In this document: one piece after another, positions 12,888-56,587 of the stretch
Layout: every line of letters begins with the position of its first letter
Position numbering within the stretch: the stretch's first letter is position 1
Source of the DNA: Candidatus Woesearchaeota archaeon
GTDB lineage: Archaea > Nanobdellota > Nanobdellia > Woesearchaeales > UBA9642
Length of the DNA: 64,000 nt
Direction of reading: 5' to 3'
Assembly: GCA_003599145.1 (NCBI GenBank)
Contig: QZIT01000005.1
Location: forward strand, 127,961-191,960
Position numbers and translations under genes: made by a program
Notes under the pieces: generated by a model
Told to the model about the DNA's origin: nothing
Seen by the model: only the letters and a program-made list of their open reading frames with translations
Databases searched by the model: none

Positions 12888-13139
12888 AGTGAGAGAACTG
12901 TTTAAACTTATTTAAAGTTTCTTAATACTACCTCAAACTCATAACAAATTACAGCAAGGTTTATATACCTCCTGAACTTAAAGAGCTTATGGGTGATGTC
13001 ATGGGTTATTTTCAAACCCTGTCCAAGGATAAATTAATGGCGTGGATTGCCGTTGTCATTGGATTTTTGCTGATAATTATTGCCCTCTTGATTTGGTAAA
13101 AAACCAAAGGTTTATATAGGAAAACAGGTAAAGATTACT

Positions 13140-13337
13140 ATGGGCCAACAAGAAGTGTATGATTTTTTGTGCAAGCACAAAGGCAAGTGGTATACGAGCA
13201 GGGAAATTTCTGAAAAACTCGGCGTTTCTATCGGTAGCGTTACTATGTCCTTAAAAAAATTAAGAAAAACCAATATTATCAAATACAAAAACACTGGTAA
13301 GAGAAACACCTTTAAGTATAAAGTGGATAGGCGTTAA
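13140..13337 (+). CDS. small winged-helix DNA-binding protein
   Basis: 65 aa; YTSREISEKLGVSIGSVTMSLKKL resembles HTH recognition helix region of small archaeal wHTH regulators. Confidence 0.5.
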   Translation: MGQQEVYDFLCKHKGKWYTSREISEKLGVSIGSVTMSLKKLRKTNIIKYKNTGKRNTFKYKVDRR

Positions 13338-13531
13338 ATTTCTTCTTCCTCTTCTTCCTTCACTTTCTTGACACTTTTACGACGAGTGTTTTCTGAGTCT
13401 TCATCGTAGCCTTTCAAAAAGGCATCTTCTCGGTCATCTATTTCGTCATCTTCTCTTAAGTCATCAACATCTTCACTGTCGTAATAGTCTTCTTCTTTTT
13501 CCGCCATGGTGCTGTTAGTTTTCAAAATCAT
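13334..13531 (-). CDS. small highly acidic protein ending in a poly-Glu tail (KEEEEEEI)
   Basis: 57-65 aa (alternative start MAEKEE); about 50% D/E, no Cys, predicted disordered; lies 37 nt downstream of the ATP-grasp-like gene on the same strand. Confidence 0.45.
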   Translation of the reverse strand: MILKTNSTMAEKEEDYYDSEDVDDLREDDEIDDREDAFLKGYDEDSENTRRKSVKKVKEEEEEEI

Positions 13532-13568
13532 TTATATAGTTTTCGCATTGATAATATATACTGAGAAT

Positions 13569-22130: not shown

Positions 22131-23120
22131 TTATAAATAGGGACCCATTTCTTTCTTCAATTCCTCTATATAATCAACAGGCGACGGGTCTATCCTGTAG
22201 CGCAAGGCCAAAAAGTAGGTGGTTAAATCGCCTATATGGATAGCGGTAAAAAGCTGTGAAAGATAATTTTCCCCTTTGATGTTTAAGGAAGTCACGGTTG
22301 TTTTTCTCCTGATGAGCTTTTCCGTGATGTCCATTCTTTTTTGTATTCTTTTATGGTCAAGATCGCTTTTCAAAAAGATAACATGAAAATGCCCTATGAG
22401 ATGCTCAAAGCCCATGATGGCGTTATGATCTAATTCAGGAAATGCATGGGAGAAAGCCATGACCTTTGCATTTTCATTGAACTGTGTTTTCCATCTGTAC
22501 GCTATGCTGGAAAATTTATTTGAAGAGTAAATGATGGGAATTTTATTGTAGTTTTTTTCTAGTAAATCCTTTGCAATTTTTTCATAGCCTTCTTTTTTCA
22601 GCGCATTGATGGTTTGCCTTACGGCAGTATCCTGGCTTTTCAGGAGTTTTGCGTTTTCTAAAGCACTTAACATAGGGAAGAACATGTAAGCAACGGCGTT
22701 TCTTGGCTGCATGAATTTGGGTATTAACACAATCTGGGTCTTTTCATCCTGAGCAAGCTTTAGCAATCTGCCTCCTGAAGTGATAACCACAATGAGTGCT
22801 TTTTTCTTTCTTGCTTCCCTGTAGGCAGAAATGGTCTCTTCTGTATTTCCGCTGTAAGAACTGGCAAAAACCAACGTCTTTTCATCAATCCAGTCAGGAA
22901 TGTTATAATCTCTGATAACCGTAACAGGAACATTGGCAATATAGCTTTGCAGAATGTCTCCTGCAATGGCACTTCCGCCCATGCCAATAATGACGATTTT
23001 GTCTACAGGCTTATCAACCCTTATATAATCGCCCATTTTATAAGCTTCAGCAATTTGGGATGGCAATTGATCAATTGCCTTTTTCATATCCTGGCTGTCT
23101 AAATTAATCTCCTTTCCCAT
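22131..23120 (-). CDS. bifunctional phosphoglucose/phosphomannose isomerase (SIS domain)
   Basis: IIGMGGSAIAGD SIS motif, about 330 aa, archaeal PGI/PMI family. Confidence 0.75.
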   Translation of the reverse strand: MGKEINLDSQDMKKAIDQLPSQIAEAYKMGDYIRVDKPVDKIVIIGMGGSAIAGDILQSYIANVPVTVIRDYNIPDWIDEKTLVFASSYSGNTEETISAYREARKKKALIVVITSGGRLLKLAQDEKTQIVLIPKFMQPRNAVAYMFFPMLSALENAKLLKSQDTAVRQTINALKKEGYEKIAKDLLEKNYNKIPIIYSSNKFSSIAYRWKTQFNENAKVMAFSHAFPELDHNAIMGFEHLIGHFHVIFLKSDLDHKRIQKRMDITEKLIRRKTTVTSLNIKGENYLSQLFTAIHIGDLTTYFLALRYRIDPSPVDYIEELKKEMGPYL

Positions 23121-33509: not shown

Positions 33510-33545
33510 AAAACTTAATAAACAACCGACGTTTCTTTAGATTGC

Positions 33546-33629
33546 GCCGTGGTCGCATAACCTGGTATTGCGCGAGTTTCGAAAACTCGTTTCCGCAAGG
33601 AGTTCTCGGTTCAAATCCGAGCCACGGCG
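33546..33629 (+). tRNA. tRNA-Ser (anticodon CGA), class II with long variable arm
   Basis: Hand-folded: acceptor GCCGTGG/CCACGGC, D-stem GCA/TGC with GG in the loop, anticodon stem CGAGT/ACTCG, loop TTCGAAA, variable arm about 15 nt, T-stem CTCGG/CCGAG, T-loop TTCAAAT, discriminator G, CCA not encoded. Confidence 0.85.
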
Positions 33630-33687
33630 TTTTTTTCAATTACATCGCATCTTCTTCAAGGAAAAGAAAAAAAAAATTTAATATTGA

Positions 33688-47525: not shown

Positions 47526-47582
47526 CAAAAACCGTGCAATCTTCGCAGTGCGCAGTTTTTAATCATGTGGTTTTTGGAACAA

Positions 47583-47627
47583 AGAAACCCTAAAGGGTTT
47601 CTGGTTCAAGAAATGCTATGCATTTCT
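47583..47627 (+). terminator. two consecutive perfect hairpins (GAAACCCT-AA-AGGGTTTC and AGAAATGC-TAT-GCATTTCT)
   Basis: Seen directly, about 60 nt after the stop of 46911..47525. Confidence 0.3.
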
Positions 47628-47723
47628 TTGAATTGAAAATTGCTTGAGAGTCTAAAACCTCTAATATGCAATTTTCAATAATTACCAAAAAGCTTATAAA
47701 TAAATCATCCAATAAATAGGTGA

Positions 47724-48851
47724 ATGAAGAAGATATCAGTATATTTAGCAGTACTGCTCCTTTTTTCGTCTTTAGCATTGGCGTTTGACCCTTTAACAAC
47801 CATTATAGATCCTTTTAGGGAAATAGATTTTGCATCGTTCTATTTAGGAGCGTATTATTTCATTGACGGCATTATCTACTTGATGATTTTTTTAGGGTTG
47901 GGAATGTTTGTTTTCAAGAAATATTACCAGCAAAATGCCAAGCCTATTGTCATAGGTGTTGGTTTAGCTTTAACTTTCGCAGCGACATATTTTGAATACC
48001 TAACAGGATTTAATTTAGGCCAATTGTATCCTATAGCTGCCATCATCATCTTATTTATCATGATTTTCTTGATTTATGAATTCATGCATTCGTTCATCAA
48101 TGACGTTGGAGCATCTGCTTCCATCGCAATGCTTTTGGGAGCAGCAATGCTGATGAGCATCTTCACAGGCATTTATGATTGGTTAGTCCAGAATTCTCCT
48201 TTAGGCGCTGCGTTAGTGCATTTGGCAGTTGTCTTTGCGTTTGTTTTATTGATTATCAGGTTATTCAGATTATTTGGAAATGGACAGAATGCTGGAACAC
48301 CTGGACAACAAGGACCTGCAGGTCCCCAAGGACCACCTGGAAATCAAGGAATACCAGGACAAGGAGGCGGACCAGGAATGCCTGGACAGCCAGGACCTAT
48401 TGGACCGCCAGGGCAAGGAGGAGGAAACCCGCCAAATCCACCAGGACAACCATTAACAGTGCAAATTGCAGTGCCTGGAAGAAACGGACAGCAATTCCAG
48501 CAAGGGCAATTGCCTCATCTTGAAGCAGTTATTCGAGGAGGAACATCTCCTTATTATTTTAGATGGACAATCAATGGTCAGCAGGCAGGACAAGGGCAAA
48601 CTAACGGACATGCACGCACTCAAATCAATCCATTGCCCCCTGGAAGATATCACGCGATTATTGAAGTGACTGATACAGCAAACCATATTGCTGCAGACCA
48701 AAGAGATTTTGTTATTACAGGAGGTAATCCTTTGCAAGTACAAGTGCAACCTATCACACATCCCGTAGCACCAAACGGAAACGTTACGGTTAACCTTAAT
48801 ATTCAAGGAGGACAGCCTCCTTATACTATACAACCAATCATCAATCCATAA
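47724..48851 (+). CDS. membrane-anchor module + collagen-like Gly-X-Y repeats + Ig-like (GxPPY) repeats; probably the N-terminal part of a split gene
   Basis: 17 uninterrupted G-X-Y triplets ([57 protein letters not shown]); [10 protein letters not shown] and [10 protein letters not shown] Ig-like repeat motifs. Confidence 0.6.
48282..48451 (+). repeat. collagen-like G-X-Y coding repeat (DNA level)
   Basis: gga/ggc-cca/cct triplet periodicity across about 170 nt. Confidence 0.6.
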
Positions 48852-51911: not shown

Positions 51912-52712
51912 CTACAAATCATCCAGAGGAGATTTAATCTTTTTCTTCTGGTCGTTGCTGATTTGCGTGTACAATTGCGTCGTCTGCAAATTGCTATGGC
52001 CTAATAATTCCTGAATCATCCTAATATCGGTTCCTTTTTCCAGCAAATGCGTAGCAAAACTGTGCCTCAAGGTATGGGGAGAAACCTTTTTTTGTATGCC
52101 TGCTTTCCGTGCAGATTTCTGGATGATTTTTTGCACGTTTCTTGGGCTGAGCGTGCCTGTTTTTCCAGGAAAAACATAATCCGTTATCTTCGATAAGTAA
52201 GGCCTTAAATCAGTAATGACCGCATCTGATAAGATAGCCATCCTGTCTTTTCCGCCTTTTCCTCGTCTTACCCAGGCAAGCTTATTGTCCATTTCTACAT
52301 CTTTCTTTTTCAATTGCAAGAGTTCAGAAACCCTCAATCCTGAAGAATACAGCAGCTTAATCATCAATTTGCTTTTTAAGGTTGGCGTAGATTCAATAAG
52401 CTGTTTTACCTCTTCTTTGCTCAAGATAGAGGGCAATTTTCGCGCTATTTTAGGAGTTTTGACATTGACAATGTTCTTTTTTAACACATCCCCGTAATAG
52501 AATTTCAAGGCAGACCTTGCCAGTGCCACCGTCGATGCATTGAGCTTTTTATCGGCAATAAGATACGCCAAATATTTCTTAATATCCTCTTCCAAAACAA
52601 CATCAGGCGTTTTTTTTGCAAAATGCAGGAACAATTGATTGTGAAACACATACGTTTTGATAGTTGTTGGACTGCAGCCTCTTAATTTTAATTCTGTTTC
52701 AAGATTTTCCAT
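51912..52712 (-). CDS. tyrosine recombinase, XerA/XerC-like (phage integrase family)
   Basis: Core-binding SPTTIKTY...; catalytic region LRHSFATHLLEKGTDIRMIQELLGHSNLQTTQLYTQI (R, HxxR, Y). Confidence 0.85.
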   Translation of the reverse strand: MENLETELKLRGCSPTTIKTYVFHNQLFLHFAKKTPDVVLEEDIKKYLAYLIADKKLNASTVALARSALKFYYGDVLKKNIVNVKTPKIARKLPSILSKEEVKQLIESTPTLKSKLMIKLLYSSGLRVSELLQLKKKDVEMDNKLAWVRRGKGGKDRMAILSDAVITDLRPYLSKITDYVFPGKTGTLSPRNVQKIIQKSARKAGIQKKVSPHTLRHSFATHLLEKGTDIRMIQELLGHSNLQTTQLYTQISNDQKKKIKSPLDDL

Positions 52713-54548: not shown

Positions 54549-55106
54549 ATGAAAGAAGACGATATTCACAGAGAAATCTTAAAAGAAGCCCTTGCTGAGA
54601 AAGAGGAAAAGCCATCAAAAGTATGGCCTTATATTTGGGTAGGCATAGGCTTATTGATTATTATTTTGCTTATTTTAGCCTATACAGGAGGCATCTCAGG
54701 CATTTATTTCATCAAAGGAAGAACTGCAAGCGGAGAAATTCAAAATTTTCAAGTGGATTTTGAAGAGGGCAAGGTCATTTTTGAGCCTTCTGTCTATGAA
54801 GCGTTAAAAAACCAGTTTTTGGCAAATTACACAGCGGAATTTAAAGTCTGCCTATTGGGAGAAAAGCAGGGAAAGAACTATATTATAACAAGTTTTTACA
54901 CACCAATCATTTTCTCGCAGGATTTTACCAGTGTACACAGCGTACAGTGCAACAGCTCAACCATCATTCCCTTGCACAGCCATCCTGTAGATAGTTGTTT
55001 ATTTTCAGATCAGGATAAGGCATCATTTAAAGCATTTAAAGAGGTAAATCCTGATGCGATCTATGGATTGATGTGCTCGGCAAATCGATTTTCATTCATA
55101 AAATGA
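54549..55106 (+). CDS. membrane-anchored JAB/MPN (JAMM) metalloprotease-like protein
   Basis: N-terminal TM helix; LHSHPVDSCLFSDQD fits the JAMM motif H-x-H-x7-S-x2-D. Confidence 0.55.
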   Translation: MKEDDIHREILKEALAEKEEKPSKVWPYIWVGIGLLIIILLILAYTGGISGIYFIKGRTASGEIQNFQVDFEEGKVIFEPSVYEALKNQFLANYTAEFKVCLLGEKQGKNYIITSFYTPIIFSQDFTSVHSVQCNSSTIIPLHSHPVDSCLFSDQDKASFKAFKEVNPDAIYGLMCSANRFSFIK

Positions 55107-55152: not shown

Positions 55153-55452
55153 TTAGAAATAGCCTTTCATGCCTTTGAAATATGTTTTGATTTGGACATA
55201 GCATGATTTCAACTCTTTTTTTCCTAAAGCAGTAAGGCTATAGTGCTTTTTTCTGCCGTCCTTTTTCCACGTTACTAGTTTTTGTTTTCTGAGCCTTTTG
55301 AGCGTAGGATAAATCGTTCCTGGCGTTAAAACCTCTCCTTTGCGCATGCCAATGCTTCTGGCAAGTTCATCACCGGAAAACGGTTTTTTTGACAATTCGT
55401 GCAGAATGAAAAAAGACAAAAAACCCTTGATTTCTATTTTTGCTTTAGGCAT
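55153..55452 (-). CDS. PadR-family transcriptional regulator
   Basis: GFLSFFILHELSKKPFSGDELARSIGMRKGEVLTPGTIYPTLKRLRKQKLV. Confidence 0.85.
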   Translation of the reverse strand: MPKAKIEIKGFLSFFILHELSKKPFSGDELARSIGMRKGEVLTPGTIYPTLKRLRKQKLVTWKKDGRKKHYSLTALGKKELKSCYVQIKTYFKGMKGYF

Positions 55453-55502
55453 TTTGCTTTTAAGTGCTTCTGCTATATAAATATTGCGCTTTATTAGAAG
55501 AA

Positions 55503-55624
55503 CTAAATAATATAGCTTTTGCTTAAATTATTTAGCATATTTTTTATTAAAAGCGGTTATATTTACTTATTGATTAAACTATATATTGTTTATTCTATAT
55601 ATCTATTGTTCAATATATTGAACA
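55503..55624. promoter_or_regulatory. inverted repeat CTAAATAAT-N15-ATTATTTAG (55503-55535) and perfect 18-bp palindrome TGTTCAATATATTGAACA (55607-55624) upstream of PadR
   Basis: Seen directly. Confidence 0.45.
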
Positions 55625-55629
55625 CACTA

Positions 55630-55985
55630 TAAATGAAAAGAAAAAAAACAATCAAAAGATCTATGAAAAAAGAAAAAAAGAGCTGTAAAAAAAACAATAA
55701 AAAAAGAAAGAAAAAAGAAGAGAAAAACAGGTGAAAAATCATCAAAAAAAGAATGGAAAATGCAATACTCCTGTATAAGACAGGGCAAAAGTGAGGGTTT
55801 TATACTGAAGAGAAAGAAAAAAAAGCTATAAAAAAAGACAGAAAAATACGTTAAAAAGAAAGATAAGCAAAAGAGCGTTAAAAAAGGAGTAAGGAAAGAT
55901 ACTAAAATAGAGAAATGAAAAGGCAATAAAACAAAAGAGTAAGCAAAACTAAACGGAAATACACTCTATAAAGCGAAAAAAAAGA
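55630..55985 (+). repeat. about 360-nt purine-only (A/G, mostly A) low-complexity tract, non-coding
   Basis: Top strand almost devoid of C/T runs; only stop-riddled K-rich micro-ORFs; the 99-aa antisense F/L/S-rich ORF in the track is a compositional artefact. Confidence 0.6.
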
Positions 55986-55996
55986 AAAAGTGAGAC

Positions 55997-56482
55997 TTAC
56001 AACACTGCCTGTGCATACGCAGGATTGCTGTTTAATACATTCTGCTTTGCCTGAACACGCTTAAAATTGCTGTCGAGTGTGTAATAAACAATGCTTTTCA
56101 AAGATTGCTGCTTTAAGACAGGTATGCCTTTATTGATTAAGTCCTCAATATACGTTATAACCAATGCTTCTGAAAGGTTCAGCTTGTGGGCAACATCAGA
56201 TGCAGACAGCAAAAAGTCAGATGCATACAATAACATGAGAATTTTCTTTTCTAATACGCTTAAAGGCACGTTTAAATGGAAAAAGTGAGAGTTCCCAAGC
56301 ACCATGGATAATTCTTCCTGATGCTCCTGAAATTTATCCATCATAGCATAGAGTTCTTTTAATTCTTCATCATGCTGGTTTAAGAGTTCACGGTAATCAT
56401 CAAGCTCCCGAAGCACGTCGCTGTTGGTAATCGTGTGCTTTTTAATGAGCTTCTGCAGTGCTAAGCGTAGTTTCAATAGCAT
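55997..56482 (-). CDS. putative transcriptional regulator with C-terminal wHTH
   Basis: LSVLEKKILMLLYASDFLLSASDVAHKLNLSEALVITYIEDLINKGI. Confidence 0.5.
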   Translation of the reverse strand: MLLKLRLALQKLIKKHTITNSDVLRELDDYRELLNQHDEELKELYAMMDKFQEHQEELSMVLGNSHFFHLNVPLSVLEKKILMLLYASDFLLSASDVAHKLNLSEALVITYIEDLINKGIPVLKQQSLKSIVYYTLDSNFKRVQAKQNVLNSNPAYAQAVL

Positions 56483-56587
56483 GTAAACACCCCCAAACTA
56501 ATAACTAATCATGCCTTTAAAAAGTTTTTTATCTTGCAAACTATATTTCGAAACCTTTTTATAGCTGTAAAACGCAAAAGTGAGAGT

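Follow-up and report, generated by a model that had tools for sequence, protein, structure and literature searches.

A long oligo-T-rich spacer between tandem wHTH and PadR regulator genes of a Woesearchaeota archaeon, with a conserved strand-specific box and a probable operator array

In a 64-kb stretch of DNA (hereafter the window) from a metagenome-assembled genome of Candidatus Woesearchaeota (full source contig 576 kb), a 544-nt interval without a credible gene (positions 55453-55996) separates two genes for regulators, i.e. one for a protein with a winged helix-turn-helix (wHTH; upstream) and one for a member of the PadR family (downstream). An earlier description of this DNA (the initial annotation, made from its letters and open reading frames (ORFs)) had taken the flanking regulators to be divergent-looking, whereas they stand in tandem on the minus strand, wHTH first and PadR second. 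The same description held the interval to be unusually long for non-coding DNA, and in this it was right: the median gap (between window ORFs of at least 100 aa) is 64 nt, and the interval is probably the longest truly non-coding stretch of the window (the single larger nominal gap, 12888-13568, is occupied by small ORFs). Followed along the gene (minus) strand, the stop codon of the wHTH gene is succeeded by a short box (E1), ~190 nt rich in T5-T8 runs, a further E1, a small hairpin, ~150 nt of T-runs, four units of a palindromic array (E3), a quasi-palindromic box (E2), a candidate TATA box and the start of PadR (Table 1).

The product of the downstream gene belongs to the PadR winged-helix proteins, both by its score against Pfam PF03551 (46.7 bits, cut-off 27, E 3.3e-12) and by the profile of its 143 homologues (for the most part from Woesearchaeota), which matches solved PadR structures (16 at E <= 1e-3, best 5dym at 1.5e-12). 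The wHTH protein, for which few homologues are detectable (unlike PadR), matches HTH_11 of Pfam (E 1.2e-05), and its AlphaFold model (pLDDT 68.8) depicts a helix (H20-63) followed by the wHTH, the Foldseek matches of this model being ArsR/SmtB/MarR/AbfR-type regulators. We also observed that most Woesearchaeota PadR orthologues carry a Lys-rich N-terminal extension of 10-40 aa (MKKNVKKSKKK...; e.g. P0015, P0045 and P0076 in alignment A1), which the window PadR (99 aa) and a few close relatives lack.

A look at gene neighbourhoods, supplemented by two collection scans (genomes and metagenomes), yielded 162 loci; 61 of them (56 distinct spacers, Woesearchaeota) show the arrangement of the window, with a wHTH homologue encoded ahead of PadR in the same orientation. 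The spacers of these 61 loci have a median length of 338 nt (at least 250 nt in 45, at least 500 nt in 12) and range from 14 to about 800 nt; three that exceed 1300 nt hold inserted genes, and the few of 14-27 nt are probably artefacts of taking the farthest in-frame PadR ATG. The genome and metagenome scans returned no relative closer than 71% (PadR) or about 50% (wHTH); three E1 copies occur in the ~620-nt spacer of the closest one with DNA (L083, PadR 71%), and two in the 612-nt spacer of a further one (L069, wHTH 49%). The comparison with relatives for conservation and length variation, which the initial annotation had proposed as a check, gave a divided answer: the gene pair and its long spacer recur, and the sequence and length of the tract described below vary. 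The relatives' spacers align just at short boxes, their T-rich parts differing in length and in repeat type (with clear T-run simple-repeat expansions in L012 and L010), and they are T-rich but not homopyrimidine (pyrimidine fraction 0.53-0.69).

A tract of ~360 nt within the interval (55630-55985) had been described as almost exclusively A/G on the top strand. Its purine bias is the strongest in the window (the highest-purine 350-nt segment of the 64 kb: 0.789 vs a mean of 0.50 with a standard deviation (SD) of 0.07, i.e. ~4 SD above), but 'almost exclusively' is too strong a wording for a content of 79% purine (A 61%, G 18%, T 13%, C 8%) and a longest unbroken purine run of 29 nt (55699-55727). 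The 'purine tract' is the complement of oligo-T runs on the gene strand, where 16 runs of at least five T (T5+) face none on the other strand (44/kb vs 5.5/kb in the window) and 26 T4+ runs are spread across about 360 nt. These runs are arranged in two modules, divided by an island that is not T-rich (55761-55810) and that contains an E1 box (ACCCTCACTTTT) together with a small stem (CCTGT-N5-ACAGG), which is the sole stable local stem in the RNA fold; short stems of a similar kind follow E1 in L012 and L002. The A-runs of module 2 (as seen on the plus strand) start at 55641, 55654, 55666, 55673, 55687, 55699, 55711, 55723, 55734, 55744 and 55757, and the run autocorrelation peaks at lags of 11, 23 and 33. 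Modules 1 and 2 align locally with a score of 56 (shuffles 35 +/- 5.5, z 3.8), and the tract consists of two diverged tandem 'E1 + T-run' modules, each headed by the same 12-13-nt box. Short repeats of 11-12 nt and of 25 nt were detected inside the tract by TRF; the modules and these repeats bear out the 'degenerate repeat' part of an earlier suggestion that the tract is a degenerate repeat scar.

The excess of T on the gene strand extends to the spacers of relatives, in which T5+ runs outnumber A5+ runs (341 vs 143; T5+ > A5+ in 39 of 57) and T makes up a larger share of the sequence that follows E1 (0.53) than of the sequence that precedes it (0.44). A T-run spacing of ~11-12.5 nt is likewise present in spacers that are unrelated to one another (19 of 35 with p <= 0.05 by mononucleotide shuffle, a weak control). 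Right after the wHTH stop codon of the window, the gene strand reads TAA-GTCTCAC-TTTTT-C-TTTTTTTT, so placing the starts of a T5 and a T8 run no more than 25 nt from the stop; the presence of at least two U4+ tracts within ~30 nt, on the transcribed strand and downstream of a stop codon, has the form of a predicted archaeal U-tract terminator.

The box that heads both modules (E1) reads AACTCTCACTTTT (also written CTCACTTT; AAAAGTGAGRGT on the plus strand) and has the consensus tTAACtCTCACTTTT in relatives. The 64-kb window contains exactly four copies, all on the same strand and all within 800 nt (55787-56587). E1 is found at +3 to +13 after the wHTH stop also in five relatives (L039, L085, L064, L037 and L083). 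L037, L039 and L001 likewise have an E1-like box shortly before the wHTH gene, and in L037 and L039, as in the window, the complement of E1 lies immediately next to the ATG of the divergent gene. Across 50 distinct spacers, against an expectation of 0.4, the count of E1 is 36 in sense orientation and 0 in antisense, and its density amounts to 1.9/kb in the spacers and 1.3/kb in the wHTH coding sequences, vs 0.01/kb (sense) in the flanks (169 kb). Furthermore, spacer length scales with the number of boxes, the median being 249, 337, 553 and 659 nt for 0, 1, 2 and 3 copies, respectively (Spearman 0.52, p 5e-5).

Copies within the wHTH coding sequence were also seen in the loci of relatives (e.g. 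L002 4437 and L008 1750). In the wHTH genes of 19 clade-A orthologues, the E1 core (TCT-CAC-TTT) furnishes the only 3 of 115 conserved-residue columns in which the codons are 100% identical, while elsewhere in these genes His is written CAT 38 times and CAC 10 times; moreover, where Ser is changed to Thr or Ala at E1, 'CT' is retained. Since the codons are invariant, and 'CT' is kept in spite of the residue changes, we suggest that E1 within the coding sequence is under nucleotide-level selection that overlaps the protein frame (shared ancestry does not enter these statistics). The reader of E1 may act at the DNA or at the RNA level, as strand specificity and presence in a coding sequence fit either equally. 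Two other accounts of the box were rejected. One, in which the 295/295/199-nt spacing of the copies reflects a tandem duplication of 295-nt units that includes the wHTH gene, fails because only the two intergenic modules resemble one another (the other inter-E1 segments share just the box); the other, E1 as a Shine-Dalgarno or core-promoter element, meets copies without a start codon and an offset to TATA-like boxes that varies.

The perfect 18-bp palindrome reported in the initial annotation is present (TGTTCAATATATTGAACA, 55607-55624; 2 such palindromes in the window vs 0.33 expected from block shuffles), has the layout TGTT-N10-AACA and lies 155 nt upstream of the PadR ATG. It is the first and the most symmetrical of the four units of the E3 array (TRF: 55568-55621, period 16, 3.4 copies). 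In most loci of relatives an array with the same 16-bp period (tATAaaCAATATATTG) precedes the PadR ATG by 25-150 nt; chains of at least three units were found in 13 of 50 spacers (vs 0 in shuffles), and in short spacers the array extends into the TATA box. Its layout (inverted 4-nt half-sites around an AT-rich core of ~8-12 nt, upstream of its own gene) is that of a PadR-type operator, and we consider E3 to be a probable PadR operator array. The core of E2 (GCTTAAA/TTTAAGC, in either orientation) occurs in 24 of 50 distinct relatives' spacers (vs 3.1 in shuffles). Its sequence in the window takes in the right arm of an inverted repeat, CTAAATAAT-N15-ATTATTTAG, that had been singled out before; this repeat exists, but is not significant on its own, as 9-nt-arm inverted repeats with a spacer of up to 30 nt number 19 in the window (shuffled 12 +/- 3.7). 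A TATA-like box is located 25-33 nt upstream of the PadR ATG in relatives, and the position of the candidate box in the window implies that the PadR mRNA is probably leaderless or provided with a very short leader.

Two further observations concern palindromic DNA elsewhere in the window. The second perfect 18-bp palindrome (GGCAATTGATCAATTGCC, 23062-23079) falls in or at the end of ORF 22131-23120. Moreover, three back-to-back perfect inverted repeats capable of forming hairpins (AGAAACCCT/AGGGTTTCT, AGAAATGC/GCATTTCT and ATTGAAAATTGC/GCAATTTTCAAT; 47575-47719) lie upstream of ORF 47724-48851 (no Pfam match) and are followed by CCAATAAATAG, the only E3-like box of the window outside the PadR spacer; because this box precedes it, the ORF is a possible second PadR target.

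Table 1. Features of the wHTH-PadR interval and its borders (window coordinates)
Feature	Position	Strand	Remarks
PadR-family regulator gene	55153-55452	-	99 aa; PF03551; downstream gene of the pair
Candidate PadR TATA box	55474-55481	-	TTTATATA; ends 21 nt upstream of the ATG; read from sequence
Inverted repeat	55503-55511 / 55527-55535		CTAAATAAT-N15-ATTATTTAG; right arm inside E2
E2 box	55521-55536		GCTTAAATTATTTAGC; quasi-palindromic 16-mer of the type GCTTAAAA-NN-TTTAGC
E3 array	55563-55624		four 16-bp units; cores 55611-55620 (CAATATATTG), 55595-55604, 55579-55588, 55563-55572
Oligo-T module 2	55630-55760	-	A-rich on the + strand; T-runs phased at ~11-13 nt
Hairpin-capable inverted repeat	55770-55784	-	CCTGT-N5-ACAGG; immediately follows E1 copy 4 (gene strand); read from sequence
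E1 copy 4	55787-55798	-	ACCCTCACTTTT on the gene strand; heads module 2
Oligo-T module 1	55811-55985	-	A-rich on the + strand
E1 copy 3	55986-55997	-	AGTCTCACTTTT; begins at the last base of the wHTH stop codon; runs into T5 and T8
wHTH (HTH_11-type) gene	55997-56482	-	161 aa; first gene of the pair; long N-terminal helix (coiled coil) + winged helix-turn-helix
E1 copy 2	56281-56292	-	within the wHTH coding sequence, codons N-S-H-F
E1 copy 1	56576-56587	-	94 nt upstream of the wHTH ATG; other strand abuts the ATG (56588) of a divergent membrane-protein gene

On balance, and with a confidence that only just passes the even mark, we favour the reading that the 544-nt interval, a non-coding spacer within a conserved tandem wHTH-PadR pair, serves regulation and termination and has grown by module duplication. 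On this reading the T-runs would serve as repeated archaeal U-tract terminators, at which transcription of wHTH ends and which protect the PadR promoter against read-through; the palindromic array would be the autoregulatory operator of a PadR dimer, and E1 (perhaps together with E2) would be read by a regulator encoded at the locus, for which the adjacent wHTH protein is the simplest candidate; the tract would have reached its 360 nt in the lineage of the window because the 'E1 + T-run' module was duplicated and slippage occurred locally. Most of the region is regulatory DNA of an ordinary, familiar type; less ordinary are the strictly periodic operator-like array and the conserved strand-specific box that is kept constant inside a coding sequence.

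Both halves of this reading have counterparts among characterized systems. Term-seq in Methanococcus maripaludis revealed that archaeal terminators are U-tracts, that at least two U4 tracts confer the highest termination efficiency (with aCPSF1) and that the motif spans ~23 nt (PMC8716108). The locus resembles them in its predicted consecutive U4+ tracts and in the T5/T8 runs within 25 nt of the wHTH stop, and it departs from them in the number and spread of its T4+ runs over two modules, and in the CTCAC box that heads each module and lies outside the known terminator signal. As for the array, small PadR (PadR-s2) proteins recognize, in the promoters of their own genes, inverted 4-nt half-sites around an AT-rich core of 8-12 nt, and often more than one such site side by side, e.g. 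TACT-N11/12-AGTA for cdPadR1 and ATGT-N8/10-ACAT for LmrR/PadR (PMC5050560). The predicted sites of the locus (TGTT-CAATATATTG-AACA) share with these operators a 10-nt AT-rich core and the position upstream of their own gene, and with the cdPadR1 promoter the presence of several adjacent sites; they differ in the half-site sequence, in the strict 16-bp period of an array of 3-4 units, in a location ~80-150 nt upstream of the TATA box (in the window) rather than over it, and in their host, an archaeon with a TATA/BRE promoter. Likewise, the A/T runs of 4-8 nt that recur every 11-13 nt over two stretches of ~120-170 nt bring to mind phased A-tract curved DNA, and similar phasing was observed in several relatives (under the mononucleotide-shuffle control); the phased T-runs may also provide useful curvature. 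Their period of 11-12 nt nevertheless deviates from 10.5 nt, and slippage of 11-12-nt units predicts the same pattern.

A number of observations weigh against the regulatory and terminator reading. A length of 360 nt far exceeds the need of a ~23-nt terminator motif, and much of the tract may lack a function of its own. The tract cannot be aligned between genomes, because the nearest relatives are so diverged (~50% identical in wHTH and 71% in PadR), and the recurrent T-run spacing was judged against a weak control. Moreover, the strict strand specificity of E1 fits an RNA-level signal as well as it does a DNA site, a pure terminator leaves copy 1 (upstream of the wHTH promoter region) and copy 2 (in the coding sequence) unexplained, and where E1 stands with respect to neighbouring TATA-like boxes differs from clade to clade.

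The alternative that survives best, although we regard it as unlikely, is that just E1, E2, E3 and the promoter are functional and that the A/T-rich bulk arose from slippage and module duplication, with neither its length nor its composition serving a purpose. It is in keeping with the unconserved sequence and length of the tract (14 to about 800 nt among the spacers), with the 11-12-nt and 25-nt repeats found by TRF, with the T-run expansions in L012 and L010, and with a terminator motif (PMC8716108) far shorter than the tract. It does not, on the other hand, anticipate the consistent gene-strand T bias of E1-bearing lineages, which slippage alone leaves unpredicted, nor the recurrence of the T-run spacing (weak as its control is) or the rise of the T fraction after E1. 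At the opposite end, and somewhat more doubtful still, stands the tentative proposal that E1 and its phased oligo-T tail form an undescribed strand-specific cis-module of Woesearchaeota, which would be read on DNA, or on the wHTH mRNA and its U-rich 3' region, by a factor encoded at the locus; it would set the read-through from wHTH to PadR (by factor-controlled termination or a roadblock, for example), multiply by tandem duplication, and be constrained enough to fix synonymous codons in the wHTH gene.

An improbable further account assigns the tract to an A-rich non-coding or antisense RNA of the plus strand, which would run from near the palindromic array (with its TATA-like ATATAT cores) into the 3' end of wHTH and act as an antisense regulator. 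TATA-like sequences do occur in the array just upstream of 55634 and before the plus-strand complements of E1 (55965-55972 and 56557-56565), and the RNA fold has a z of -2.0 on the plus strand (-0.2 on the minus). This value is owed, however, to one small stem, the remainder being unstructured and poly-A-like, the tract is unconserved between relatives, and the TATA/E1 arrangement varies between clades. A scan with Rfam 15 (permissive E-value and gathering score) returned no family in the 64-kb window or in 7 relatives' loci, the sole sub-threshold match (STnc240, E 4.1) being due to chance. The structured purine-rich non-coding RNA envisaged in the initial annotation, which had itself named an Rfam scan as a check, is consequently disfavoured by the scan, the weak fold and the lack of conservation.

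A further conjecture of the initial annotation, H-DNA or a triplex, fares worse, and we deem it highly improbable that the tract adopts either of these, or some other non-B structure, with a regulatory or recombinogenic role. The tract shares with H-DNA-forming mirror repeats a strong purine/pyrimidine strand asymmetry, and its 29-nt homopurine run includes one 17-nt perfect mirror repeat (55700-55716). Such structures call for long unbroken homopurine mirror repeats, whereas here the runs are short and A-rich (with just 2-5 G each), none extends beyond 29 nt without a break, and the perfect mirror arms do not exceed 8 nt. Nor are purine runs of 15 nt or more exclusive to the tract (20 in the window, the longest of which, 33 nt, lies in a coding region elsewhere), and the relatives' spacers are not homopyrimidine.

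Very unlikely too, and slightly more so, is a small Lys-rich protein or decayed gene on the plus strand (e.g. a 33-aa ORF, 55634-55735, MKRKKTIKRSMKKEKKSCKKNNKKRKKKEEKNR) or a product of the 99-aa F-rich minus-strand ORF (55627-55926). These ORFs do exist, and the plus-strand one begins ~10 nt after the palindrome and could be leaderless. All three plus-strand frames of the tract are nevertheless cut by many stops, the spacer ORFs of the window have no counterpart in any of those other spacers in which an ORF of 30 aa or more is present, and Lys/Arg-rich antisense ORFs were encountered in just 5 of 39 spacers, at differing positions. The 99-aa ORF has no NCBIfam match, and its composition is explained by T-richness. 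We rejected the 33-aa ORF and the F-rich minus-strand ORFs of 99 and 51 aa as coding; the comparison with relatives revealed no conserved frame across the tract, and the initial annotation was correct in calling the region non-coding (with a conserved frame as the finding that would overturn it) and its F/L/S-rich antisense ORF an artefact. The idea that the tract is an inverted copy of the PadR Lys-rich N-terminal extension was likewise discarded, because this extension is just 10-40 aa long and, in relatives, is encoded on the gene strand immediately before the PadR core. A replication origin (with the tract as an AT-rich unwinding element and E1 as ORB-like initiator sites), although suggested by the long AT-rich non-coding stretch (GC 18-28%), the repeated short boxes and a winged-helix protein nearby, is equally implausible and already weakly refuted, as no Orc1/Cdc6 is found among the neighbouring genes examined or in the relatives' loci, the E1 copies are co-oriented instead of inverted around an unwinding element, two of them lie in or upstream of the wHTH gene, and GC skew has no turning point at the site.

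As DPANN archaea (e.g. Woesearchaeota) are known chiefly through metagenomic data, their gene regulation has hardly been studied. The locus offers a compact case: next to two adjacent regulators it has a probable PadR operator array, unusual in its strict 16-bp period, and a 13-nt box that is kept across very diverged genomes, synonymous sites of a coding sequence included. If the T-run modules tune read-through, they would exemplify modular, expandable archaeal terminator/insulator DNA; if they do not, the striking 'purine tract' would be mostly compositional filler around a few real signals.

With respect to the wider neighbourhood, we observed recombinase genes near the PadR end of the locus in several genomes, including serine recombinases (Resolvase/Recombinase) in two relatives (L002 6368-7769 and the P0011 contig); in the window, a tyrosine recombinase of XerC/D type (51912-52712) lies 2.4 kb off. 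The gene content between RpoL and the wHTH gene also varies among genomes, which, together with the recombinases, suggests a rearrangement-prone neighbourhood. The ORF that converges with PadR (54549-55106, plus strand) has no Pfam or NCBIfam match and contains the motif H-S-H-P-x7-S-x2-D (IIPLHSHPVDSCLFSDQD), which follows an N-terminal transmembrane segment and presumably resembles the JAMM/MPN+ metalloprotease signature. A tRNA-Ser(CGA) located by ARAGORN at 33545-33630 is absent from the Rfam report for the window. Lastly, the other long gap of the window (12888-13568) holds an ORF for a winged-helix-like protein of 65 aa (13140-13337, plus strand) and one for a highly acidic protein of 65 aa (13334-13531, minus strand).

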